A DNA stretch of 64,000 bases from an uncultured Flavobacterium sp. Lineage in GTDB: Bacteria; Bacteroidota; Bacteroidia; Flavobacteriales; Flavobacteriaceae. Both the position numbers and the translations under genes were made by a program. How positions within the stretch are numbered: the first letter of the stretch is position 1; every line of letters starts with the position of its first letter. This document shows positions 12,381-25,192 of the stretch, piece after piece. The stretch spans positions 351 through 64,350 of the forward strand of contig CALFIG010000254.1 in assembly GCA_937876455.1 (NCBI GenBank), in the 5' to 3' direction. The notes beneath the pieces were generated by a model. That model worked only from the letters and a program-made list of their open reading frames with translations. It was not told where the DNA came from and did not search any database.

Positions 12381-15185
12381 ATGTCTGAAGAAAGAGCAAT
12401 ACGAATTAATAAAGTCTTAAAAGAATTTAATATTTCATTGGATAGAGCAGTGGAAACACTTAAGGACAAGGGGCACACAATTGAGCACAGTCCTAATGCA
12501 AAAATATCTCAATTGGAGTATGACGTTTTATGTAGTACTTTTTCGGCTGATAAGGGGAACAAAGTAGCCTCTAAAGAAGTAGGTGAGGAAAAGAAAAAAG
12601 AGAAAGAAGCTCTTAAACGTGAAATCGAAAAAGACCTCGAAGAAAAACGTCGCGCTGAAGATGAAAGACAGAAACAAGAAATTATTAAAGCAAAAGCCAC
12701 TGTAACAGGTCCAAAAACACTTGGAAAAATTGAGCTAAATCCAATAAAAGGAGAAGTTGCTGAACAAAAAAATGTTTCGGAAAAACCTGTAGCTAAAATT
12801 GTTGAAAATGCGGTTATAAAAGAAGAAGTAAAATCCGAAAAATCTTCTGAAGCATCAAAATCAGAAACAGAAAAGAAAAAAGTTGCGGAACCAGTTTCAG
12901 TAGTTAAGAAAAAAGAAACCACAACTAATGCACAAGAAAGTGATGATGCATCAATTGATGAAACTATAAAAACCCAATATCAAAAACTTTCAGGTGCTAC
13001 TTTTACAGGACAAACCATTGATTTATCTCAATTTAATAAGCCTAAAAAGAAAAAAGAAGAACCTAAAAAAGATGGTAATCCTGCTGGTACAGGTAATACA
13101 AATCAAGCTGGAGCGAATAACAACAAAAATAAACGCAAAAGAATTACAAAGCCTGCAGGGCCAAATACTGGAGGTGCTGCTAATAATACGCAACAAGGAG
13201 GACAAAGAAAACCATTTGCAGCAGGAAATGATAGATTCAAAAAAGGAGGGCCAAAACCAGCTGTGGCTAAAGTTGAGCCTACAGAAGAAGAAGTTAAAAA
13301 TCAAATCAAAGAGACGCTAGAAAGATTACAAGGAAAAGGTAATAAATCTAAAGCGGCCAAATATAGAAGAGACAAAAGAGATACGCATCGTCAACGTTCA
13401 GAAGACGAACAATTACAACAAGAATTAGAAAGCAAAATCTTAAAAGTAACTGAATTTGTTACAGTTGGAGAAATTGCTACTATGATGGATGTGCCTATTA
13501 CAAAAGTAATTGGAACATGTATGTCTCTAGGCATAATGGTTACCATGAATCAGCGTTTAGATGCAGAAACATTAACTATTGTTGCAGATGAATTTGGGTA
13601 TGAAGTACAATTTATTACAACAGATATTGAAGAAAATATCGAAGTAATAGAAGATAATCCAGAAGATTTAACACATCGTGCGCCAATCGTAACCGTTATG
13701 GGACACGTAGATCACGGAAAGACATCTTTATTAGATTACATTAGAAAAGCAAATGTAATTGCTGGAGAATCAGGAGGAATTACACAACATATTGGCGCGT
13801 ATAGTGTAACTTTAGAAACAGGTCAAAAAATTACATTTTTAGATACACCAGGTCACGAAGCCTTTACAGCTATGCGTGCACGTGGTGCTCAAGTTACAGA
13901 TATCGCTATTATTGTAATTGCTGCAGATGATGATATCATGCCTCAAACAAAAGAAGCAATCAGTCATGCACAAGCAGCGGGAGTTCCTATGATATTTGCT
14001 ATAAATAAAGTAGATAAACAAACTGCAAATCCTGATAAAATCAAAGAAAAATTAGCTTCAATGAACCTTTTAGTGGAAGAATGGGGTGGAAAATACCAAT
14101 CTCATGACATCTCTGCTAAAATGGGAATGGGAGTTACAGAACTTTTAGAAAAAGTATTATTAGAGGCCGAAATATTAGAATTAAAAGCAAATCCAAATAA
14201 ACCGGCACAAGGAACAGTTGTAGAAGCTCAGCTAGATAAAGGACGTGGATATGTTTCTACTATCTTGGTACAAGCAGGGACACTTAAAATTGGCGATTAC
14301 CTTTTAGCTGGTAAAAACCATGGTAAAATCCGTGCCATGTTTGATGAAAGAGGACATACTGTAAAAGAAGCAGGTCCTTCAACACCAGTATCTATCCTTG
14401 GACTAGATGGTGCGCCAACAGCAGGAGATAAGTTTAATGTATATGAAGATGAAAGAGAAGCAAAACAAATTGCTGCAAAACGTACACAATTAATGCGTGA
14501 ACAATCGGTTCGTACACAAAAACATATTACCCTTTCAGAAATTGGGCGCCGTATCGCTTTAGGTCAGTTTAAAGAATTAAACATCATTCTTAAAGGAGAT
14601 GTGGACGGTTCAGTAGAAGCATTATCTGATTCATTCTCTAAATTATCAACGGAAGAAATTCAAATTAATATTATACATAAAGGAGTTGGAGCAATTACAG
14701 AATCTGACGTATTATTAGCGTCTGCTTCAGATGCTATTATTATTGGATTTAATGTTCGTCCTGCTGGAAATGCAAAAGCATTAGCTGAAAAAGAAGAAAT
14801 TGATATCCGAAATTATTCTATTATTTATGCAGCTATTGATGATTTAAAAGATGCAATGGAAGGCATGCTTTCTCCAGAATTAAAAGAAGAAATTACAGGT
14901 ACTGCCGAAATTAGAGAATTGTTTAAAGTTTCTAAAGTAGGAACAATTGCTGGATGTATGGTTACAGATGGTAAAGTAATTCGCAGTAACAGAATCCGAT
15001 TAATTAGAGAAGGGGTTGTTATTTTTACAGGAGAATTGGTTGCTTTAAAACGTTTCAAAGACGATGTAAAAGAAGTATCTAAAGGATACGATTGTGGTAT
15101 GCAAATTAAAGGATACAATGATATTAAGGAATACGATATTATTGAAAGTTTCCACGAAGTCGAAGTAAAGAAAAAATTAAAATAA
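12381..15185 (+). CDS. infB: Translation initiation factor IF-2
   Basis: [13 protein letters not shown] and NKVD G motifs, long charged N-terminus, C-terminal VSKGYDCG. Confidence 0.99.
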
Positions 15186-15190
15186 AACGT

Positions 15191-15222
15191 AATCCCGAGT
15201 TTAATTCTCGGGATTTTTTTTT
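15191..15222 (+). terminator. Intrinsic terminator of the rimP-nusA-infB operon
   Basis: AATCCCGAG-tttaatt-CTCGGGATT followed by a long T run. Confidence 0.9.
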
Positions 15223-15308
15223 GCTATAAACCTAACAGACTTTCAAAAATTTTAATAAAAACGAAATAAAATCCGCGATTAAATTAGTTTCTTATCCTTT
15301 TTTTCTCT

Positions 15309-15316
15309 TATTTTTG
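15309..15316 (+). promoter_or_regulatory. -7 promoter element (TATTTTTG) for the aromatic catabolic operon
   Basis: TAnnTTTG match 22 nt upstream of the first gene's ATG. Confidence 0.55.
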
Positions 15317-15338
15317 AGAGGATTATAATAAAATAAAC

Positions 15339-15941
15339 ATGCAATTCGACATTCAAAACACCGAATCTTCGGCTTTATATAAATTATTGACAGGAACTGT
15401 CATTCCAAGACCTATCGCTTGGGTAGCCACTATTGATGAAAATGGAATTGATAATTTGGCTCCGTTTTCCTTTTTTAATGTCGTTAGTGAGGACCCGCCT
15501 CACATTATGTTTTCAACTGTTCGAACGGGAAATAAAAATAAAGACACGTTAAATAATATTCTCGCCAATCAGCAATTTGTAGTCAATTTAGTTACGGAAG
15601 ATGTTGTAGAACAAATGAATACTACTGCACAATCCGTTGCGGCTGATGTCAATGAATTTGAATTAGCAAACGTAACACCAATAGAATCCATTTACATCAA
15701 ACCAAAACGAGTAAAAGAAAGTTTGGTGCAATTTGAATGCGAAATGGTACATCATTATTTTATCGAAAAGCATCAAAAGGGAGGCGCTTGTATTATCATT
15801 GGAAAAATTATTACCATGCATATTGACGATTCAATTTTGATGGAAAATCATAAAATCAATTTAGAAAAATACAAACCTGTTGCGCGTTTAGCAGGTTCAA
15901 ATTATAGTAAATTAGGAGAAATATTCTCCATTAAAAGATAA
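15339..15941 (+). CDS. Flavin reductase-like FMN-binding protein
   Basis: PRPIAWVAT...NLAPFSFFN...KDTLNNI...FVVNLV and C-terminal ARLAGSNY pattern. Confidence 0.9.
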   Translation: MQFDIQNTESSALYKLLTGTVIPRPIAWVATIDENGIDNLAPFSFFNVVSEDPPHIMFSTVRTGNKNKDTLNNILANQQFVVNLVTEDVVEQMNTTAQSVAADVNEFELANVTPIESIYIKPKRVKESLVQFECEMVHHYFIEKHQKGGACIIIGKIITMHIDDSILMENHKINLEKYKPVARLAGSNYSKLGEIFSIKR

Positions 15942-15981
15942 TTTAATTATCAATTATCCATTGTTAGTTATCCATTAAAAT

Positions 15982-18360
15982 ATGAAAATAACAGTTATAG
16001 GTGGTGGTCCAGGCGGACTTTACTTTTCGATATTAACCAAAAAAGCAATGCCACATTGCCAAATCGATATATACGAAAGAAACAAACCCGATGATAGTTT
16101 TGGATTTGGGGTAGTGTTTTCAGATGAAACCTTAGGCGAATTTTTAAAACGCGATATGCAATCGTATGAGTTAATCCGAAGTAAATTTGCGTATTGGGAC
16201 GATATTGTAGTAGCTCGAGATGGTGAAGAAGTAAGTATTGCTGGAAATGGTTTTTGTGGCTGTTCTCGTAAAACGCTCCTCCAATTGCTACAACAACGTT
16301 GTGTAGAAGAAGGTGTAAATTTGCATTTTGAACAAAATGTAGAGGATTTATCGCAATTCGAGGATTCAGATATAATTTTAGCTTCTGATGGAATTGCAAG
16401 TGCTATTCGTACAAAATACCAACAAGAATTCGGAACGAAAATTGAAGTAAAGAAAAACCGATTCGTTTGGTTAGGCTCAACAAAACCGCTTGACGCATTT
16501 ACCTATTTTTTTAGAAGTACACCGCATGGAACGATTGTTGCTCATACCTATCAATACGAAGAAGGCATGAGTACTTGGATTTTTGAATGTAGTGACGAAA
16601 CATGGCAAAAACATGGTTTTGAAGTAACAAATGAAGCAGATACGATGGCAAAAATCGCTGAAATTTTCAAAGAGGAATTAGACGGTCATCCGTTAATTTC
16701 CAATAAATCGCATTGGCGTCAATTTCCGCATGTTACAAATGAAAAGTGGCATCATAACAACATCGTTTTATTAGGCGATGCCAAAGCCACAGCTCATTAT
16801 TCTATTGGTTCAGGAACAAAATTAGCCATGGATTGTGCCATTGGTTTATCGGATGCCGTAATAGCCAATCCAACTAATGTGCAAGCTGCTTTTGAACACT
16901 ACGAAAAAACCCGAAGAAATACGGTAGAAATGATTCAATATGCTGCAGTCGTTTCTTTAGATTGGTTTGAAAATATGGATCGTCATATGCAACATTCGTT
17001 TCAGCAATTTGCATTTGGTTGCATGACGCGTTCTAAAAAAGTAACGTATGAAAATTTACGCTTAAGAGATAGTTCTTTTACTGATAAGGTTTTAGCAGAA
17101 TTTTTATCTTCGAGAACCTCAGATAATAATTTTAGCAAAAGTGTGTTGCCAGAGGCACTCGAAGCCAACAGTTCAAATCAAAAAGCGTTGCCAGAGGCTC
17201 TCGAAAGCAAAAGTGCTGCGTTTTCAAAATTTAAACTAAGAAATATAGAATTACAAAATCGTATCGTAATGTCGTCAATGGGGCAATATTTGGCCGAAAA
17301 CGGATTGGTGAACGATTGGCATTTTCAGCATTACACATCTAGAGCTGTGGGTGGTTTAGGATTAATTCTTGCCGAAATGACAGCTGTTTCTGACACAGGA
17401 AGAATTACAGAAGGTTGCGCAGGAATTTATACCGAAAATCAAGTAAACGCTTGGAAACGAATTACTGATTTTATTCACAAATATACCCAAACTAAAATCG
17501 GAATTCAAATAGGGCATTCAGGAAGAAAAGGTTGTTCAAAAATTCCTTGGGAAGACAAATTTCAGAGTAAAAAATGGGAGTTACTTTCGGCTTCTGCTAT
17601 TCCGTTTAATGAAAATCTAAATCCCGAAACTTCGGGGCCGAAAGAGATGACTTTAGCAGATATGCAATTGGTTAAAAGTCAATTCGTTCAAGCAGCTAAA
17701 AATGCAGACGAAGCTGGTTTTGATATGATTGAATTACAAGCGCATCATGGCTTTTTATTGGCATCTTTTTTGTCGCCATTGACTAATATTCGTACCGATG
17801 AATTTGGAGGAAGTGTTCAAAATCGATTAAAATATCCATTAGAGGTTTTTACCGCCATTCGGGAAGTATTTCCAAAAGAAAAACCAATTTCAGTTCGAAT
17901 TTCAGCAACCGATTGGGCAGAAAACGGAATTTCAGAACAAGATGTTTTGGTAATTTCTAAAGCGTTTAAACAGGCAGGTGCCGATATAATTAATGTTTCT
18001 ACAGGAAATACCGTGGCGCACCAAAAACCAATTACAGGAAGAATGTGGCAAACGCCTTTTTCAGATACGGTTCGAAATACCGTTAATATTCCAACAATTA
18101 CCGCAGGAACAATTCAAGATATCGACCAAATTAACACCATTCTTTTAAACGGAAGAGCCGATTTAGTAGCGCTAGGTCGACCTTTATTGTTAGATACTAA
18201 TTTTGTGAGAAATGCGCAAGCGTATGAACAATTTCAAGCAAATGATATTCCAAATCCATACAAAATGGGTGTTTCGCATTTGTATCCACTAAAAGCTTCA
18301 GAACGAAAACAAGCAGAAGGTATGAAAAAAGCATTGAAACCGAAAAGCAATAAATTATAA
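15982..18360 (+). CDS. Bifunctional salicylyl-CoA 5-hydroxylase / anthraniloyl-CoA monooxygenase-like protein (FAD monooxygenase fused to an OYE-like domain)
   Basis: GGGPGGLY, FGFGVVFSD and LLGDAKATAHYSIGSGTKLA in the N-domain. The C-domain is an old-yellow-enzyme TIM barrel (NIRTDEFGGS..NRLK, GRADLVALGR). Confidence 0.9.
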   Translation: MKITVIGGGPGGLYFSILTKKAMPHCQIDIYERNKPDDSFGFGVVFSDETLGEFLKRDMQSYELIRSKFAYWDDIVVARDGEEVSIAGNGFCGCSRKTLLQLLQQRCVEEGVNLHFEQNVEDLSQFEDSDIILASDGIASAIRTKYQQEFGTKIEVKKNRFVWLGSTKPLDAFTYFFRSTPHGTIVAHTYQYEEGMSTWIFECSDETWQKHGFEVTNEADTMAKIAEIFKEELDGHPLISNKSHWRQFPHVTNEKWHHNNIVLLGDAKATAHYSIGSGTKLAMDCAIGLSDAVIANPTNVQAAFEHYEKTRRNTVEMIQYAAVVSLDWFENMDRHMQHSFQQFAFGCMTRSKKVTYENLRLRDSSFTDKVLAEFLSSRTSDNNFSKSVLPEALEANSSNQKALPEALESKSAAFSKFKLRNIELQNRIVMSSMGQYLAENGLVNDWHFQHYTSRAVGGLGLILAEMTAVSDTGRITEGCAGIYTENQVNAWKRITDFIHKYTQTKIGIQIGHSGRKGCSKIPWEDKFQSKKWELLSASAIPFNENLNPETSGPKEMTLADMQLVKSQFVQAAKNADEAGFDMIELQAHHGFLLASFLSPLTNIRTDEFGGSVQNRLKYPLEVFTAIREVFPKEKPISVRISATDWAENGISEQDVLVISKAFKQAGADIINVSTGNTVAHQKPITGRMWQTPFSDTVRNTVNIPTITAGTIQDIDQINTILLNGRADLVALGRPLLLDTNFVRNAQAYEQFQANDIPNPYKMGVSHLYPLKASERKQAEGMKKALKPKSNKL
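17106..17210. repeat. Three copies of a REP-like hairpin (loop wGAGGcwCTCGAA) inside the hydroxylase coding sequence
   Basis: ATCT-TCGAGAACCTC-AGAT (17106-17124, reverse orientation), TGTTGCC-AGAGGCACTCGAA-GCCAACA (17144-17170), TTGC-CAGAGGCTCTCGAAA-GCAA (17188-17210). Confidence 0.75.
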
Positions 18361-18362
18361 AT

Positions 18363-18387
18363 AATTACGAATTAGAAATTACGAATT
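18363..18387 (+). repeat. Tandem AATTACGAATT repeats (left arm around the 18388 ORF)
   Basis: Exact copies at 18363-18373 and 18377-18387. The reverse complement AATTCGTAATT lies at 18757-18767. Confidence 0.85.
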
Positions 18388-18756
18388 ATGAAAAAAAATA
18401 AAATTTTTTACATCTCAATAATATTAGTTTTTGTTTGTTTTTGCATTTATTATTTTGAACCAATGCATAAGCCTGTTGAAACGTTAGATGAATTGATAGG
18501 TAAAAATTTGGATTTTGTAAATAATAAATATTTTAAATCTGAAGCAGATGAGACAATTAAAATCAACATAAATAATAACTTGAATGAATTTCAAGGAGGA
18601 ATATTAAATAAAAAATCAATATTAACAGATAGTATAGTCTATCAATATACCTGGAAATTTTTCACACACAAAAAAACAATTTGGGTTGGAAAAACAATTG
18701 AAAATAAATACCAAATAATTGATGCAATTAGATATAAAAACAATGTGAAATTTTAA
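18388..18756 (+). CDS. Hypothetical protein with N-terminal membrane anchor/signal
   Basis: 122-aa ORF beginning MKKNKIFYISIILVFVCFCIYYF. No family recognised. Confidence 0.7.
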   Translation: MKKNKIFYISIILVFVCFCIYYFEPMHKPVETLDELIGKNLDFVNNKYFKSEADETIKININNNLNEFQGGILNKKSILTDSIVYQYTWKFFTHKKTIWVGKTIENKYQIIDAIRYKNNVKF

Positions 18757-18771
18757 AATTCGTAATTAACT

Positions 18772-20352
18772 ATGAAAGATAATTTCGCTCATAAAAGTTT
18801 ACCAGCTCTGGAATTACAACCCAAATACACCTTTTTGGATTTACCACAATTCCAACAACCTGAACTATTGAATTGTGTCGATAAATTACTAGATAATCAC
18901 ATCAAAGAAGGTCGAGGAAATACCATTTGTATTCGAACCTTTGAAGAAACCTGGACATATCAGGATTTGTTTGAAAAAGCCAATCAAATGGCACATGTTT
19001 TAGTCGAAGATTTAGGGCTAGAATCAGGAAATCGCGTATTGCTGCGTTCGGCGAATAACCCAATGATGGTAGCGTGTTGGTTTGCCGTTTTAAAAGCTGG
19101 CGGAATTGTAGTAGCTACTATGCCTTTGCTTCGTTCTAAAGAATTGACTACAATTATTGATTGTGCTGAAATTTCACATGTATTGTGCGATAAGGAATTG
19201 GAAGAAGAAATACATTTAGTAAAATCGGATTTTTTTAAACAAACCTGTTTTTATGGAAATAGTCAATTGGAAAAATTAATGGCTACAAAATCAAAAGTAT
19301 TTGAAAATTATCCTTCAAAATCTGAGGATGTGGCTCTTATTGGATTTACTTCAGGCACTACAGGTTTGCCAAAAATGACAGCACATTATCACAAAGATAT
19401 TTTGAATATTTGTGAAGCATTTCCAAACTATTCGTTGCAACCTACTTCAAATGATATTTTTACAGGAAGTCCGCCCATTGGTTTTACTTTTGGTTTAGGA
19501 GGTTTGGTGTTGTTCCCCATGTATTTCGGAGCTTCCACTTTTTTAATCGAAAAACCAAGTCCAGATGTGTTGTTGAAAGCCATTCAAGAGTATAAAATCA
19601 CGATTTGTTTTACCGCTCCAACCGCTTGGCGAATGATTACCACTAAAATTCAAGAGTACGATATTTCGAGTTTACGAAAATGTGTATCTGCAGGTGAAAC
19701 ATTACCGTTAAAAGTTTGGCAAGATTGGTATGATGCCACAGGACTAAAAATTATTGATGGAATTGGCGCTACCGAAATGCTACATATTTTTATTTCGTCT
19801 AATGAAGAAAACATGAAACCCGGCGCTACAGGTAAAGCCATCACAGGTTATGAAGCTAAAATTATTGACCAACAAGGTAATGAAGTACCAAAAAATGAAG
19901 CTGGAAGACTAGCCGTTCGAGGAATTACAGGTTGTAAATACCTAAACCGAGAGGAAAAACAACGCGAATATGTCGAAAATGGATGGAATATTACAGGCGA
20001 TATTTTCCGTCAAGATGACGAAGGGTATTTTCATTTTGTTGCTCGTGGCGATGATATGATTATTTCTTCTGGTTATAATATTGCGGCAATTGAAGTAGAA
20101 TCCGTACTTTTAACTCATGAAAATATTTTAGAATGTGCCGTTGTGGGTTTACCCGATGAAGAAAGAGGCATGTTGGTTTGTGCATATATTGTTTTAAAAG
20201 AACAAGCAACGGCAGATGAAGCCTTAAAAATTCAGATTCAAAATTGGTTTAAAAACTCGGCAGCACCTTATAAATATCCAAGAGTAATTCATTTTGTGGA
20301 TTGTTTGCCAAAAACAGAAACGGGTAAAATACAACGATTTAAGCTGAAGTGA
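18772..20352 (+). CDS. Aromatic acid-CoA ligase (2-aminobenzoate/benzoate-CoA ligase family)
   Basis: AMP-binding motifs FTSGTTGLPK, SAGETLP, DGIGATEMLHIF, ITGDIF, PKTETGKIQRF. Confidence 0.9.
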   Translation: MKDNFAHKSLPALELQPKYTFLDLPQFQQPELLNCVDKLLDNHIKEGRGNTICIRTFEETWTYQDLFEKANQMAHVLVEDLGLESGNRVLLRSANNPMMVACWFAVLKAGGIVVATMPLLRSKELTTIIDCAEISHVLCDKELEEEIHLVKSDFFKQTCFYGNSQLEKLMATKSKVFENYPSKSEDVALIGFTSGTTGLPKMTAHYHKDILNICEAFPNYSLQPTSNDIFTGSPPIGFTFGLGGLVLFPMYFGASTFLIEKPSPDVLLKAIQEYKITICFTAPTAWRMITTKIQEYDISSLRKCVSAGETLPLKVWQDWYDATGLKIIDGIGATEMLHIFISSNEENMKPGATGKAITGYEAKIIDQQGNEVPKNEAGRLAVRGITGCKYLNREEKQREYVENGWNITGDIFRQDDEGYFHFVARGDDMIISSGYNIAAIEVESVLLTHENILECAVVGLPDEERGMLVCAYIVLKEQATADEALKIQIQNWFKNSAAPYKYPRVIHFVDCLPKTETGKIQRFKLK

Positions 20353-20385
20353 TTCGTAAATAGTAATTAGAATAAAACATAATCT

Positions 20386-20413
20386 TGTCATTCCGACGTA
20401 AGGAGGAATCACA
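20386..20413 (+). repeat. REP-like palindrome TGTCATTCC-gacgtaagga-GGAATCACA
   Basis: Imperfect 9-bp stem resembling the GTCATTCCGAC..AGGAGGAAT intergenic repeat I recall from Flavobacteriaceae. Confidence 0.65.
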
Positions 20414-20433
20414 TAATTTAGAAAACAAACAAA

Positions 20434-20853
20434 ATGAGTGAATTTATAAAACAAGAAAAAGTACGTTTCCAACATGTAGATTACGCCGGAATCGTTTTTT
20501 ATCCACGATTTTTAGAAATGCTAAATTGTTTAGTAGAAGATTGGTTTGAAGAAGCGTTAGACCGACCTTTTTCAAAAATGCACGAAACTAATGGAATCCC
20601 AACAGTTGATTTAAAAATTCAATTCAAAAATGCTGCACGCTTGGGCGAAATCTTAACCAAAAAGCTATGGGTAAAAGAACTAAAAAACTCCTCTATTATT
20701 TGTGGATTTGAGTTTGAAAACGAAAGTAATAATTTAGTTTTAGAAGGCGAAGTTACCTTAGTAAATGTAGCTTTCAACCCAGAAAGAAACGGCATCAAAG
20801 CCGAACCTTTTAATGAGGAAATGAAGAATAAAATAAAAAATTATAAATATTAA
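20434..20853 (+). CDS. Acyl-CoA thioesterase (4-hydroxybenzoyl-CoA thioesterase-like hotdog fold)
   Basis: VRFQHVDYAGIVFYPRF motif. Confidence 0.9.
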   Translation: MSEFIKQEKVRFQHVDYAGIVFYPRFLEMLNCLVEDWFEEALDRPFSKMHETNGIPTVDLKIQFKNAARLGEILTKKLWVKELKNSSIICGFEFENESNNLVLEGEVTLVNVAFNPERNGIKAEPFNEEMKNKIKNYKY

Positions 20854-20863
20854 ATTACTAAAT

Positions 20864-21226
20864 ATGAAAAGTATAGGGTTTACATTAATGTTGTTTTTTG
20901 CAATAAACTGTTTTGCTCAAAATTCAACATCACATTACAAAAAAGTATATCAATTTGATGTTCATCATCAAGATTGGGCAAAAGTTAAAACAGTGGCTAA
21001 TACATATGGGTTTATTGATAAATCTGGAAAAGAAGTTGTGCAAGCCATCTATTATAAAATTTATGATTTTGAAATTCAAAAAGACGGTAAAAAATACGCA
21101 ATGATTGAAAATGTTGCAGGAGCTTTTGGTTATATCGATGAAAACGGAAAAGAAATTGTTGAAGGGATTTATTGGAAGAAAGAAGAAGCGAATCAAAAAT
21201 TAAATTATTATTTCACTTCAAAGTAA
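20864..21226 (+). CDS. Exported WG-repeat-containing protein
   Basis: Signal peptide and two repeats, YGFIDKSGKEVV and FGYIDENGKEIV. Confidence 0.75.
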   Translation: MKSIGFTLMLFFAINCFAQNSTSHYKKVYQFDVHHQDWAKVKTVANTYGFIDKSGKEVVQAIYYKIYDFEIQKDGKKYAMIENVAGAFGYIDENGKEIVEGIYWKKEEANQKLNYYFTSK

Positions 21227-21257
21227 ATTCATAATTCATAATTTTCAATTCGTAATT
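21226..21257 (+). repeat. AATTCRTAATT heptamer-type repeats
   Basis: AATTCATAATT at 21226 and 21233, AATTCGTAATT at 21247-21257. Confidence 0.75.
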
Positions 21258-21265
21258 AAATAATT

Positions 21266-22249
21266 ATGACATTCAAAAAATTCAAAGCCGCTACTGTTCA
21301 AACCTCACCTGTATTTCTAAATGTAGAAAAAACAGTAGATAAAGCCATTTCTTTCATTAAAGAAGCAGCAAACAATCAGGTAAAATTAATTGCTTTTCCT
21401 GAAGTATTTATTTCTGGATATCCCTATTGGAATTGGATCATGACACCCGTTCAAGGCAGTAAATGGTATGAAACATTATATAAAAATTCGGTTGATGTAA
21501 CAGGACCTGAAATCAAGAAATTATGTTTGGCTGCTAAAGAAAACGATATTCATATTGTTATAGGAATCAATGAAAGAGGTTCTAGCTATGGCGAAATTTA
21601 CAATACCAATTTAATAATTGATAACAAAGGCGTTATCATCGGAAAACACAGAAAGTTAGTGCCTACTTGGGCCGAAAAACTGACGTGGACTTCTGGTGAT
21701 GGTTCTTCGTTAAAAGTATATGATACCGAAATAGGGCCTATTGGAACCTTAGCGTGTGGCGAAAACACCAATACATTAGCACGGTTTACGTTACTTTCTC
21801 AGGGCGAATTGATTCATATTGCGAATTACATTTCACTTCCGGTTGCACCACCAGATTATGATATGGCTGAAGCGATTAAAATTCGTGCGGCTGCACATTC
21901 TTTTGAAGGAAAATTATTTACGATTGTGTCGTGTTCCACGGTTTCTCAAGAAATCAAAGATGCTTTACGTGCAGATGTGCCAAATGTAGATGAATTATTA
22001 GACAGAAAAAGTTCAGCTTTCTCAAGTTTTATTGGTCCAAATGGCGCTGTCATCGGGCAACCTTTAATTGATGAAGAAGGAATAGTATATGCCGAAATTG
22101 ATTTAGAAAAATGCATCCAACCGAAACAAATGCACGATATTTTAGGGCATTATAACCGATTTGATATTTTCGATTTGAGAGTAAACACCGCTCCCACACG
22201 TAAAATCACGTTTATAGACAATCACGAAGAATTTAATAAAGATAAATAA
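21266..22249 (+). CDS. Nitrilase-superfamily carbon-nitrogen hydrolase
   Basis: Catalytic triad context FPEVF (Glu), HRKLVPT (Lys), LACGEN (Cys). Confidence 0.9.
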   Translation: MTFKKFKAATVQTSPVFLNVEKTVDKAISFIKEAANNQVKLIAFPEVFISGYPYWNWIMTPVQGSKWYETLYKNSVDVTGPEIKKLCLAAKENDIHIVIGINERGSSYGEIYNTNLIIDNKGVIIGKHRKLVPTWAEKLTWTSGDGSSLKVYDTEIGPIGTLACGENTNTLARFTLLSQGELIHIANYISLPVAPPDYDMAEAIKIRAAAHSFEGKLFTIVSCSTVSQEIKDALRADVPNVDELLDRKSSAFSSFIGPNGAVIGQPLIDEEGIVYAEIDLEKCIQPKQMHDILGHYNRFDIFDLRVNTAPTRKITFIDNHEEFNKDK

Positions 22250-22280
22250 TTGTTGACTGAGGCATTCGAAGTCAACAATT
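22248..22280 (+). repeat. REP-like hairpin of the same family as the copies inside the hydroxylase
   Basis: Perfect 10-bp stem AATTGTTGAC/GTCAACAATT around the loop TGAGGCATTCGAA. Confidence 0.8.
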
Positions 22281-22293
22281 TAAAATAAAAAGT

Positions 22294-23406
22294 ATGGAAA
22301 CAAATAATTTTTCAGACGACCAATATGGAAGAGCACGAGTTCAAGATTCCGAAGAATTAAAAGCCTATTATAAAGAATTGGAAACGCTTGGTGCGGGTGC
22401 TTTATGGACTGTCGCTAATGATATTGAACCTTGGGAACCTCGTTCTTCATCGATTCCTATGTTGTGGAAATACGATGATTTACGCGAATTAGTACTAAAA
22501 TCATCCGAATTAGTAACGCCCGAACAAGCAGGTCGAAGAGTTGTTTATTTAGTAAACGACAAACGTAAAGATGTTTCGGCAGCAGTGGGTTGGTTGTACA
22601 CCGGAATTCAAGTTACACGTCCGGGAGAGTTTACTTCGGCACACAGACATCGTGCTTCAGCCTTGCGTTTTATTATGGAAGGCGAAAAAGGCTATACCGT
22701 TGTAGATGGAAATAAAATTATACTTGAAGTGAACGATTTTGTCATTACTCCAAATTCTACTTGGCATGAACATGGTGTAGAAGAAGGTGGAAAAACCTGT
22801 ATTTGGCAAGATGGTTTAGATATTCCATTGGTAAATGCTTTGGAAGCGAATGATTATGCGGTTTATGATGGCAAACAAGAATTGGTAAAACCATTAAATT
22901 TTTCACCTATTACCTATGGCTGCGCAGGATTAATCCCAGCAGATAATACGTGGGATAAACCGTATTCTCCGCTATTCAAATATTCTTGGAAAAATGTTTA
23001 TCCAGCGTTATTAGAAGCTCAAAAAGTAAATGAAGTCAATCCGTATGACGGGATTTTCATGCAATATTCGAATCCGTTAACAGGCGGACATGTGATGCAA
23101 ACGATGGGAGCTGCGATGCAATTGTTACCGGCTGGTTTCAAAGGGAAAGCTCACAAACATACAGGTTCGTTTGTGTACCAATGTGCGAAAGGAAAAGGAT
23201 TTTCTATCATCAACGGACAACGTTTCGATTGGAAGGAAAGAGATATTTTCTGTGTTCCGAGTTGGGCTTGGCACGAACACCACAATTTATCCGAAACCGA
23301 AGATGCTTGTCTTTTTCAATTCAACGATTTACCAGTAATTGAGAGTTTAGGGCTTTTTCAATCAAGAGAATTAACAGAAAACAACGGACATCAGCCAATT
23401 CAATAA
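22294..23406 (+). CDS. Gentisate 1,2-dioxygenase-like bicupin ring-cleavage dioxygenase
   Basis: AHRHRASALRF and TPNSTWHEH Fe(II)-binding cupin motifs, WQDGLDIP, and a second cupin (AHKHTGS, VPSWAWHEH). Confidence 0.88.
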   Translation: METNNFSDDQYGRARVQDSEELKAYYKELETLGAGALWTVANDIEPWEPRSSSIPMLWKYDDLRELVLKSSELVTPEQAGRRVVYLVNDKRKDVSAAVGWLYTGIQVTRPGEFTSAHRHRASALRFIMEGEKGYTVVDGNKIILEVNDFVITPNSTWHEHGVEEGGKTCIWQDGLDIPLVNALEANDYAVYDGKQELVKPLNFSPITYGCAGLIPADNTWDKPYSPLFKYSWKNVYPALLEAQKVNEVNPYDGIFMQYSNPLTGGHVMQTMGAAMQLLPAGFKGKAHKHTGSFVYQCAKGKGFSIINGQRFDWKERDIFCVPSWAWHEHHNLSETEDACLFQFNDLPVIESLGLFQSRELTENNGHQPIQ

Positions 23407-23469
23407 CAATATAAAATTCAATAAAAAACGTTGCTACTTTGTAACTTAGCAACTTTGAAACATAATAAC

Positions 23470-24378
23470 ATGAAACTACTTACTTACAAAACAAAAGATA
23501 CCGAGCCACGTTTAGGCTTCATTCATAATAATCAAGTCATTGATATGGAAGATTTTGGCGATATTTCTAATTTCCCACTACCAAACGACATGTTGGAATT
23601 AATTGATATGGGCTTTGAAATTATTCCAGAAATTTCAGAACTAATTGCGGAAACGCCAGAAAATTTCTTTGAAGAAATCGCTTATGAAATGAACGAGGTT
23701 ACGATTTTAGCCCCAATCGAAAAACCAAGAAAAAACATCATTGGTATTGGGTTAAATTACACCGAACATGTTGCCGAAAGTGCTCGCACATTGGATACAA
23801 CTGGAAAGTTGCCAACAAAACCAATTATCTTTTCAAAACCACCCACAACGGTTACTGCTACCAATACCGAAATCATTAAAAACACGAAGTTGACTTCACA
23901 ATTGGATTGGGAATGTGAATTGGCGGTTGTTATTTCTAAAAAAGCAAAATATGTTGCCAAAGAAAACGCGATGGATTATGTGTTTGGTTACACCGTAATT
24001 AATGATATTTCTGCTCGCGATTGTCGTCGTGAAGGACAATGGATTGTGTCTAAAGGACAAGATACTTTTGCACCAATGGGACCTTATTTGGTTACAAAAG
24101 ACGAAATCGAAAACCCACACAATTTGAATCTATCGTTAAAAGTAAACGGAGTTGAAAAACAAAATTCCAATACAAAATTCATGTTGTTTAACATCAATGA
24201 TTTGATAGAAGATTTAAGCATCGTTTTTACTTTAGAAGCAGGAGACATTATTGCAACAGGCACGCCGGCAGGTGTTGGCGCAGGAAGGAATCCACAAGAA
24301 TGGATGCATAATGGTGATGTGGTAGAAGCTACAGTGGAAGGAATTGGAACTATAACGAATACAGTTAAAGAGATATAA
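23470..24378 (+). CDS. Fumarylacetoacetate hydrolase family protein (acylpyruvate hydrolase-like)
   Basis: IGLNYTEH, IFSKPPT, LDWECELAVVI, GYTVINDISARD, GDIIATGTPAGVG. Start placed at the ATG at 23470. Confidence 0.92.
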   Translation: MKLLTYKTKDTEPRLGFIHNNQVIDMEDFGDISNFPLPNDMLELIDMGFEIIPEISELIAETPENFFEEIAYEMNEVTILAPIEKPRKNIIGIGLNYTEHVAESARTLDTTGKLPTKPIIFSKPPTTVTATNTEIIKNTKLTSQLDWECELAVVISKKAKYVAKENAMDYVFGYTVINDISARDCRREGQWIVSKGQDTFAPMGPYLVTKDEIENPHNLNLSLKVNGVEKQNSNTKFMLFNINDLIEDLSIVFTLEAGDIIATGTPAGVGAGRNPQEWMHNGDVVEATVEGIGTITNTVKEI

Positions 24379-24381
24379 ATA

Positions 24382-24438
24382 AGTATTCAGTCGCAGTTTT
24401 CAGTGTTCATACTGCTGACTGGGACTGGACTGTAAACT
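24382..24438. repeat. Composite inverted repeat built of CAGT / ACTG units
   Basis: AGTATTCAGTCGCAGTTTTCAGT-gttcat-ACTGCTGACTGGGACTGGACTGTAAACT. Confidence 0.7.
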
Positions 24439-24445
24439 AATTAAT

Positions 24446-25192
24446 ATGAAATACAAAATAGGCCAAATAGTTCCATCAAGTAACGTTACGATGGAAACCG
24501 AAATACCAGCCATTTTTCGTTCACGTGAAACCATTTTACCAGAACGCTTTACCTTTCATAGCAGTAGAATGCGCATGAAAAAAGTAACCAAAGAAGAATT
24601 GGAAGCAATGGATGCAATGAGCTTAAAATGCGCACAAGAACTATCAGACGCACACGTTGATGTGATGGGTTATGCCTGTTTGGTAGCGATTATGAGTATG
24701 GGACGCGGGTATCATTGTGTGTCGGAAGTAAATTTACACCAAGAAACAGTGGCTAATGATTTTCCAACGCCAATTGTTACTTCTGCAGGCGCATTAATTA
24801 ACGGATTAAAGGTTTTGGGAGCGAAACAAATTTCGATTATTACGCCGTATATGCGACCATTAACCGATATGGTAGTGGATTATATTGAAAATCAAGGCAT
24901 CAAAGTAAAACAAAGTATCGCTTTAGAAATTCCAGATAATTTGGAAGTAGCGGCACAAAATCCAATGAATTTATTGGAAATCTACAAGCAATTGGATTTA
25001 ACAGATGTTGATGTTTTAGTCGCTTCAGCTTGTGTGCAAATGCCATCGTTGGAAGCTATTGATTTAATTCAAGCAGAATGTGGTATTCCGGTAACTTCAG
25101 CCGCAGTTTGTACCACCTATGAAATGATGAAAAAATTAGGCATTGAACCCAAATCGGCTATTGGAGGCGAATTATTAAGCGGGAAATATTAA
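24446..25192 (+). CDS. Maleate cis-trans isomerase (Asp/Glu racemase superfamily)
   Basis: IGQIVPSSNVTMETE N-terminus and the catalytic cysteine pair YACLV and SACVQMP. Confidence 0.9.
   Translation: MKYKIGQIVPSSNVTMETEIPAIFRSRETILPERFTFHSSRMRMKKVTKEELEAMDAMSLKCAQELSDAHVDVMGYACLVAIMSMGRGYHCVSEVNLHQETVANDFPTPIVTSAGALINGLKVLGAKQISIITPYMRPLTDMVVDYIENQGIKVKQSIALEIPDNLEVAAQNPMNLLEIYKQLDLTDVDVLVASACVQMPSLEAIDLIQAECGIPVTSAAVCTTYEMMKKLGIEPKSAIGGELLSGKY

Follow-up and report, generated by a model that had tools for sequence, protein, structure and literature searches.

The window, a 64,000-nt stretch of one contig from an uncultured Flavobacterium, contains a gentisate-type aromatic operon with the reading frame orf122 inside it. 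The operon runs in the order flavin reductase, FAD-monooxygenase/OYE fusion, orf122, aryl-CoA ligase, thioesterase, a WG-repeat ORF (WG120), nitrilase-family hydrolase, gentisate 1,2-dioxygenase-type cupin and FAH-family hydrolase (Table 1). The fusion upstream of orf122, hereafter the hydroxylase, is salicylyl- or 2-aminobenzoyl-CoA hydroxylase-like, with orthologues in 14 genomes of the genus. Its inter-domain linker is about 25-30 aa longer than those of its relatives and has a duplicated ...LPEALE... motif; a 150-nt alignment window in the linker region has just 60-68% identity to close relatives. The neighbours of orf122 are the catabolic genes and IF2, and no recombinase gene was found among the neighbouring operon genes, in agreement with the initial annotation of this DNA, which had reported no integrase or transposase nearby.

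Table 1. Features of the orf122 locus and of the operon around it (positions in the window).
Feature	Position	Strand	Basis or remark
Hydroxylase, 792-aa FAD monooxygenase/OYE-type fusion	15982..18360	+	Pfam PF00724 + PF01494
Extended inter-domain linker of hydroxylase	about 17110-17215
Outer stem extension TTATA	18355..18359	+	overlaps hydroxylase stop codon; RNAduplex and MFE fold, prediction
Hydroxylase stop TAA	18358-60	+	sequence read
Left arm TAATTACGAATT AGA AATTACGAATT	18362..18387	+	sequence read; TRF period 7 and 14
orf122	18388..18756	+	122 codons; ATG 18388, stop TAA 18754-56
Right arm remnant AATTCGTAATTA	18757..18768	+	outer unit of 4HB cassette right arm; reverse complement of left unit
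Aryl-CoA ligase	18772..20352	+	Pfam PF00501/PF13193
Reverse-type heptamer units	20353-20373
Palindrome GTCATTCC...GGAATCAC	20387-20412		ligase-thioesterase spacer
Stub left arm ATTACTAAAT	20854..20863	+	between thioesterase stop and WG120
WG120, 120-aa secreted WG-repeat protein	20864..21226	+	PF14903
Full right arm ATTCATA ATTCATA ATTTTCA ATTCGTAATT (whole arm ATTCATAATTCATAATTTTCAATTCGTAATT)	21227..21257	+	homologous to L111 right arm TTCGTAATTCGTAATTTAAAATTCGTAATTAAA

The neighbours of orf122 are co-directional with each other, and the repeats on its two sides, which we call arms, abut the hydroxylase stop and the ligase start. The left arm consists of the heptamer units AATTACG / AATTAGA / AATTACG / AATT-ATG, the last of which supplies the ATG of orf122. 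Read as an 11-mer, AATTACGAATT occurs twice, at 18363-73 and 18377-87, and the second copy abuts the start codon; the exact reverse complement begins at 18757, right after the TAA, and the trinucleotide ACT separates the right arm from the ligase ATG. The inverted repeat thus brackets orf122 to the base, just as the initial annotation had described. The arm unit has the form AATT-NNN-AATT. AATT is self-complementary, so that 8 of the 11 positions are blind to orientation and only the central ACG/CGT is informative.

With at most one mismatch, the 11-mer is found 12 times in the window, against 5.5 +/- 2.3 times in shuffled sequences, of which none in 100 reached 12. Exact copies number 18 in the whole 2.51-Mb, 33% GC draft genome, four of them within this operon. 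The initial annotation had raised the possibility that the 11-mer is common enough at gene boundaries for the bracket to be expected by chance, and this is not the case. The arms form a duplex of -13.4 kcal/mol (z = -4.3 against dinucleotide shuffles), and the outer extension TTATA is predicted by RNAduplex and by the MFE fold to pair with TATGA (18771-18775), where the ligase AUG lies. A more extended pairing of the 5' and 3' coding ends of orf122 in the MFE fold was dropped as not significant (z = -2.1); it arises because T-rich codons of the transmembrane (TM) segment pair with A-rich Lys/Asn codons. A search of Rfam over 15000-25000 found no rRNA and no other family, and a scan for consensus terminators found nothing at the arms.

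Both arms are present in the orf122 carriers L044, L045, L087 and L162. In a further carrier, G119 (L093), the contig stops exactly where orf122 ends, short of the right arm, and the left arm alone is visible. Across four carriers, 22 of 24 arm positions are invariant, at a third-codon-position identity of 0.73-0.87. The right arm is conserved in L044, L045, L087 and L162; its sole change, A>G in L044, keeps a G.U pair. It overlaps the last A of the stop codon in L044, L045 and L087, and this genome (G000) has one extra A.

Period-7 tandem arrays are in excess throughout the genome, with 72 arrays against 12, 15 and 23 for periods 6, 8 and 9 (TRF score >= 40), and heptamer arrays of an AATTNNN superfamily stand at five junctions of the operon. 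In the ligase-thioesterase spacer, the reverse-type heptamer units adjoin the GTCATTCC...GGAATCAC palindrome, which belongs to a repeat family different from that of the arms. Several contigs of this genome start or end in perfect heptamer arrays (C156:1-55, C255:1-53 and C28:7-44). Contig ends of this kind, together with the G119 contig (L093) that stops before the right arm, indicate that heptamer repeats break short-read assemblies.

The gene orf122 and its homologues

orf122 is a real, conserved gene with 55 homologues of 49-99% identity and 12 invariant residues. Its AF2 model (pLDDT 87) has an N-terminal TM helix (residues 3-23) followed by a mixed alpha/beta domain. No match was found to the fold in the PDB (best E = 0.15) or to the protein in Pfam, NCBIfam and PADLOC. 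A homologue is covered by one 188-nt metatranscriptome contig, weak evidence that the family is transcribed.

Within the genus, orf122 is a lineage-specific single-gene insert. A tblastn search of 13 orthologous operons gave no match, just 3 of 401 genus genomes have a homologue (398 are without), and the gene is single-copy in this genome. The initial annotation had proposed a single-gene insert, and had named presence of the ORF in all orthologous operons (0 of 13 here) as the observation that would speak against it. All homologues of 83-99% identity (L044, L045/46, L087-89, G119, L162) stand at the same junction and in the same orientation, with the same arms wherever both flanks can be read. 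Homologues of 67% identity or less occur in scattered contexts, between housekeeping genes or beside tyrosine recombinases and IS elements, and no heptamer arms were found around homologues outside the hydroxylase-ligase junction. At four loci (L049-L052) a 59%-identical homologue is always paired with a neighbour of 171-175 aa. It either follows a 379-aa tyrosine recombinase directly or is found near IS110/IS91 transposases, a setting that suggests cargo of other mobile platforms.

The PF05635 cassettes and their arms

The arms of orf122 recur around genes of PF05635, the family of the "23S rRNA intervening-sequence protein" (S23p), a four-helix bundle (4HB). All eight PF05635 genes of this genome have inverted heptamer arms, in a unit that varies from copy to copy, and inverted arms were found in 79 of 95 non-redundant 4HB cassettes from all fetched loci. 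Locus L036 (species G019) has a 4HB gene at the hydroxylase-ligase junction, enclosed by a 33-bp perfect stem of AATTACG/AATTATG units. The closest homologues of its protein form one subfamily, MK(K/N)DNVVQIKSYAFA...IQKTLRNS*, whose last codons, CGT AAT TCG TAA, are the right-arm units themselves. Arrays homologous to the left arm of orf122 occur at L031, L036, L095, L102 and L107-L136.

The placement of the subfamily was read from three looked-up proteins (P0088, P0067, P0099), each of which lies in the order hydroxylase, 4HB, ligase, as in L036, and from 30 genus loci (14 at the hydroxylase-ligase junction, three at the operon's thioesterase-nitrilase junction, 13 elsewhere). The subfamily is present in 35 of 401 genus genomes, and all 30 loci have AATTACG-type left arms and AATTCGT-type right arms. 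These arms therefore belong to the 4HB cassette and travel with it. Judged by sequence comparison, then, the arms around orf122 are the terminal arms of a PF05635 4HB cassette subfamily, the usual resident of the hydroxylase-ligase junction in this Flavobacterium group. orf122 itself is not a PF05635 protein, to judge from the absence of a Pfam match, from the AF2 fold and from the 4HB HMM, which gave no signal on the orf122 bracket of L162.

Species-representative genomes were scanned for brackets of the form AATTACGAATTATG-N338-368-AATTCRTAATT. Of the 60 found, 48 contain 4HB sequence and 12 do not; among the 12, one contains orf122 (L162), one a 63-aa ORF (L141), and most others have no clear ORF. 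Non-4HB passengers are thus real but rare. The L141 ORF, MLADSIKTQFEGQEVRVIVLK..., lies in a minus-strand bracket that gave no 4HB signal, with long AATTACG/AATTATG and AATTCGT arrays on its two sides, and is a candidate for another such passenger. Exact AATTACGAATTATG...AATTCRTAATT brackets (L137-L192) were also seen in MAGs labelled Deltaproteobacteria, Patescibacteria, Saccharibacteria, Planctomycetes, Chitinophagales and Prevotellaceae, so the arm type is not confined to Flavobacterium.

A second non-4HB passenger, WG120, occupies a known 4HB cassette site in the same operon, the thioesterase-nitrilase junction. Full 4HB cassettes with AATTACG arms are present there in L111, L115 and L116, and a gene-less hairpin in L035/L036. 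Among the operons examined WG120 is found only in this genome and in L045, where it adjoins a complete hairpin. Other junctions of the orthologous operons have different accessory genes: the ligase-thioesterase gap (L032, L034, L042), the GDO-FAH gap (L034, L036, L039, L041) and the flavin reductase-hydroxylase gap (L033, L037, L041). These genes encode a 527-aa membrane protein, secreted proteins of 390-400 aa and proteins of 151-159 aa, and are mostly without heptamer arms. The orthologous operon is a mosaic of conserved genes and variable inserts.

Probable replacement of the 4HB passenger by orf122

The history of the junction is best read from carriers of the 4HB gene that are closely related to this genome. 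In L100 and L101, both 4HB carriers, the 26-nt left arm is identical to that of G000 and is followed by ATGAAAAA; the left sides of L100 and G000 are identical through TAATTACGAATTAGAAATTACGAATT ATGAAAAA. On the right, the two are common from TTTAAAATTCGTAATTA through ATGAAAGATAATTT, including the shortened MKDNF start of the ligase, and TTTAAAATTCGTAATTA followed by ATGAAAGATAATTT is present also in L095. The ORF body alone differs, with 8-10 nt of microhomology at both joints. The start joint is ATGAAAAA(A), and MKK is native to both the orf122 and the 4HB families. At the stop joint, AATTT(T)AAA, the ...KF* end of orf122 meets a degenerate arm unit. The inner right-arm units are coding sequence of the 4HB gene and are gone with it, which explains why two copies of the unit remain on the left and one on the right.

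These observations make it quite probable that orf122 replaced one passenger, the 4HB gene, inside a resident heptamer-armed 4HB cassette resembling an intervening sequence (IVS), and that the arms were kept. The aligned junctions document the replacement at the level of sequence, and we infer that it came about by recombination aided by microhomology or flanking homology, with no dedicated recombinase. The ancestral junction would have had, in order, a left arm of AATTACG/AATTATG units, the 4HB ORF, an outer right arm and then the ligase. A horizontally acquired gene for a small membrane protein would later have taken the place of the 4HB ORF body in some lineages, with joints within short stretches common to the incoming and the resident gene (ATGAAAAA(A) where the gene starts, AATTT(T)AAA where it stops). 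Such a swap would have taken the inner right-arm units with it, and the two left units and one right unit left behind would be the 11-12 bp inverted repeat. The 4HB and orf122 forms would thereafter be alternative alleles, presumably exchanged by homologous recombination through the identical arms and flanks. No donor of orf122 with more than 67% identity was found outside the junction (the nearest copy, in F. sediminis, has 67%), and the source and the exact joints are therefore deduced. The microhomologies, A/T-rich as they are, might have arisen by coincidence, and proteins of the orf122 family natively start with MKK... and end in ...KF*.

Two details of the junction had suggested readings that were rejected. 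The short ligase N-terminus, MKDNF, is common to most of the sampled 4HB-carrying lineages in a comparison of N-termini, and loss of the ligase codons HYE through the insertion does not hold: an empty-site variant is already MKD, and the 4HB carriers L113, L118 and L119 keep HY. Nor is the AGA between the left-arm copies a decayed ligase start codon, as L036 and L100 have the same (AATTACG AATTATG)n array.

The 4HB and orf122 forms are interleaved in the trees of both hydroxylase and ligase. The 4HB carriers L100 and L095/97 fall inside a clade of orf122 carriers (G000, L044, L045) with 100% support, and in another clade L087, which has orf122, clusters with L102/103, which have the 4HB gene, likewise at 100%. 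L087 and L102 share 96.2% identity in the ligase and 96-100% in the flanks as far as the arms, barring an indel of one 7-nt unit. By these sequence comparisons the two forms coexist in at least two species-level clades, and the junction is at least dimorphic across species. Identity of orf122 between carriers (83-90%, aa) roughly tracks that of the ligase (82-93%), which points either to an old swap or to repeated exchange of the alleles and allows no single clean event to be dated. L044 and L087 are an exception, with 89% for orf122 against 82% for the ligase, a mismatch that hints at allele transfer.

Empty sites add a third form. L035, the closest species-representative genome, has an empty site and a longer, ancestral ligase N-terminus, which requires loss of the cassette or recombination in its lineage. 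In metagenome contigs from four runs (wastewater, freshwater), related strains have the junction in empty, 4HB and orf122 form. Samples of runs X1, X2 and X25 contain both passenger alleles, and in run X1 the 4HB form between the same arms has a depth of ~95x against 27x for the orf122 form. Further metagenome forms of the junction are an 83-nt spacer, an L035-like empty site and an empty site reading AAGTAA-TTAACT-ATGAAAGAT.

The initial annotation had proposed another route, in which a single gene was captured in the loop of a palindromic repeat. Its cassette idea holds in outline, and the insert does lie between inverted heptamer arrays. Capture by a free palindromic repeat does not, since the arms are those of the 4HB cassette, and L100 shares left arm, outer right arm and ligase start. 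Expressed as two steps, this model would have the 4HB gene lost first, leaving a gene-less palindromic heptamer hairpin into whose loop orf122 was later inserted. Hairpins of that kind exist in the arm family: besides the one in L035/L036 and the complete hairpin beside WG120 in L045, there are a metatranscriptome contig reading AATTACG...TTAATTCGTAATT without a gene, C7:14905 in this genome and, in another unit, L033, and a fifth of the brackets of this arm type (the 12 above) lack 4HB sequence. At the hydroxylase-ligase junction itself, however, no gene-less hairpin of the arm family was found in the sampled relatives or metagenome variants. The joints coincide with the opening codons of the 4HB ORF and with the region of its stop, where a direct replacement would put them, and a one-step swap accounts more simply for a right arm that has lost precisely its coding part. 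We consider the two-step model unlikely.

Two further models appear very improbable. In the first, orf122 and its arms would be a mobile cassette of their own that brought the inverted repeat and targeted a resident array. The right arm is indeed found only where a passenger is present, and the orf122 family occurs in many unrelated contexts, including beside tyrosine recombinases; yet across 401 genus genomes and the arm-pattern scan the homologues outside the junction have no heptamer arms, and the arms here do not differ from those that the 4HB cassette has at this site, and they overlap 4HB coding sequence. In the second, hardly more credible or less, the bracket would be fortuitous: AATTNNN arrays fill most junctions of the operon, five in all, and with only three of 11 positions deciding orientation, two neighbouring arrays could by chance stand oppositely around an unrelated insertion. 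Against this, the same bracket is kept in the other carriers whose flanks were both read, the arms match the 4HB cassette base for base, and an inverted-flank score comparable to that of orf122 is reached by just 62 of 2409 genes of the genome, including all seven called 4HB genes. Least likely of all is an invertible switch in which the repeats are recombinase sites that flip orf122: inverted repeats do enclose a short segment, and Bacteroidota are rich in invertons, but assembled contigs of eight public runs contained no inverted-orientation (strand-changing) joints, the operon neighbourhood has no recombinase gene and the carriers show a single orientation.

Known systems and the role of the arms

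The closest relatives of the locus are the armed PF05635 4HB cassettes of operon junctions. They have the same arms, site and geometry, and the orf122 locus is their direct derivative, differing in that the defining 4HB gene has been replaced. Through these cassettes the locus is also reminiscent of rRNA intervening sequences. The 23S rRNA IVS of Coxiella burnetii has a 28-bp stem with tandem heptamers (GACAGAT), and its excision by RNase III has been demonstrated (Warrier et al., 2016; PMC4990558). Like the ORF-bearing 23S rRNA IVSs of C. burnetii and Leptospira (PMC4990558), the locus is an insert of ~400 nt in a transcribed region, with terminal inverted repeats containing tandem heptamers and with a small ORF whose start abuts an arm, and the usual passenger of the site in relatives is of the same family (S23p/PF05635). 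It differs in its location between two protein-coding cistrons, not in 23S helix 25 or helix 45, in a passenger that is not S23p, and in a stem remnant of 12 bp as compared with 28 bp; RNase III excision, established for the IVS, would be a prediction for the stem here.

Intergenic heptamer direct repeats have been described in Beggiatoaceae, Cyanobacteria and Bacteroidetes, where they are still unexplained (MacGregor, 2015; PMC4679880), and repeats of the GGGNATC type likewise form period-7 intergenic arrays (Rehm et al., 2015; PMC4692102). The arms resemble both in being period-7 tandem intergenic arrays, often directly before a start codon or after a stop codon, in a genome with an excess of period 7. 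They can be classed with LSSR/STRR-like heptamer tandem repeats, the arrays here standing at operon junctions. The published arrays are direct, however, and in those papers they are tied neither to a gene family nor to paired inverted arms that enclose a gene. We found no publications on armed 4HB cassettes in operons or on passenger exchange in them.

Integron gene cassettes, too, consist of one ORF without a promoter, can be exchanged at a fixed site and have imperfect inverted repeats as their boundaries, and orf122 homologues elsewhere lie beside tyrosine recombinases in cassette-like arrays. The orf122 locus, by contrast, has no attC core (GTTRRRY/RYYYAAC) and no integrase, and its arms are AATTACG heptamer arrays; true attC-type brackets on other contigs of this genome differ from them in sequence. 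About ten small ORFs on short contigs of the genome are bracketed by GTTRRRY...RYYYAAC-type inverted repeats (e.g., C241:2095-3418, C44:2204-2431, C115:14145-14765, C63:980-1183, C169:957-1235, C197:5046-5540) and look like integron attC-bounded gene cassettes. On three more contigs (C117:1490-6097, C215:186-1028, C246:842-1099) there are strings of small genes, each gene after the same direct motif TGTAACAAA-N12-14-TTTCGTAACT, which has the look of a recurrent mobile-element or phage promoter. The locus is unlike a MITE or non-autonomous IS in that comparison with the 4HB-filled site indicates replacement, not insertion with a target-site duplication, and in that orf122 is single-copy in the genome and without arms elsewhere. 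It is unlike REP/RAYT elements (REPINs) in that the arms are tandem heptamers, not REP palindromes.

What the arms do may be considered at the level of RNA or of DNA. In a transcript they might pair into a 12(+5)-bp stem, with orf122 as the loop and the hydroxylase stop set beside the ligase AUG, a weak suggestion that follows from the modelled pairing. By analogy with the RNase III-cut IVS of Coxiella, processing of such a stem is plausible, and IVS-like RNA processing at the orf122 arms is a candidate reading that we consider less likely than not. In a test of strand asymmetry on 79 cassette stems, mismatches on the sense strand comprised 74 G.U and 76 A.C; there is no RNA-specific signal and therefore no sign of selection on RNA pairing. 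The complementarity of the arms may just as well have its origin at the level of DNA, in the making or copying of the 4HB cassette.

The arms persist without a 4HB gene in at least six lineages. The same arms enclose either a 4HB gene or an unrelated one, from which it follows that arms can outlive the 4HB gene and that their maintenance needs no protein in cis. A bolder idea, which we regard as rather doubtful, is that the arms are a passenger-independent exchange platform: persisting without the 4HB gene after a cassette has become established in an operon junction, they would act as portable homology or as hairpin docking sites at which unrelated small genes (orf122, WG120, the 63-aa ORF of L141) are swapped in and out, giving junctions that are long-lived and multi-allelic across species. 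If true, such a platform would parallel an integron site but lie within operons and need no integrase. 4HB genes in inverted heptamer arrays resemble rRNA intervening sequences, and the occurrence of a 4HB gene or an unrelated gene within the same arms, at the same site and in near-identical backgrounds (as in L087 and L102) amounts to a natural separation-of-function experiment. Matched strain pairs of this kind permit the effects of arms and of passenger on expression of the flanking catabolic genes to be tested separately. The locus represents one route by which accessory genes may enter the middle of an operon without a recombinase.
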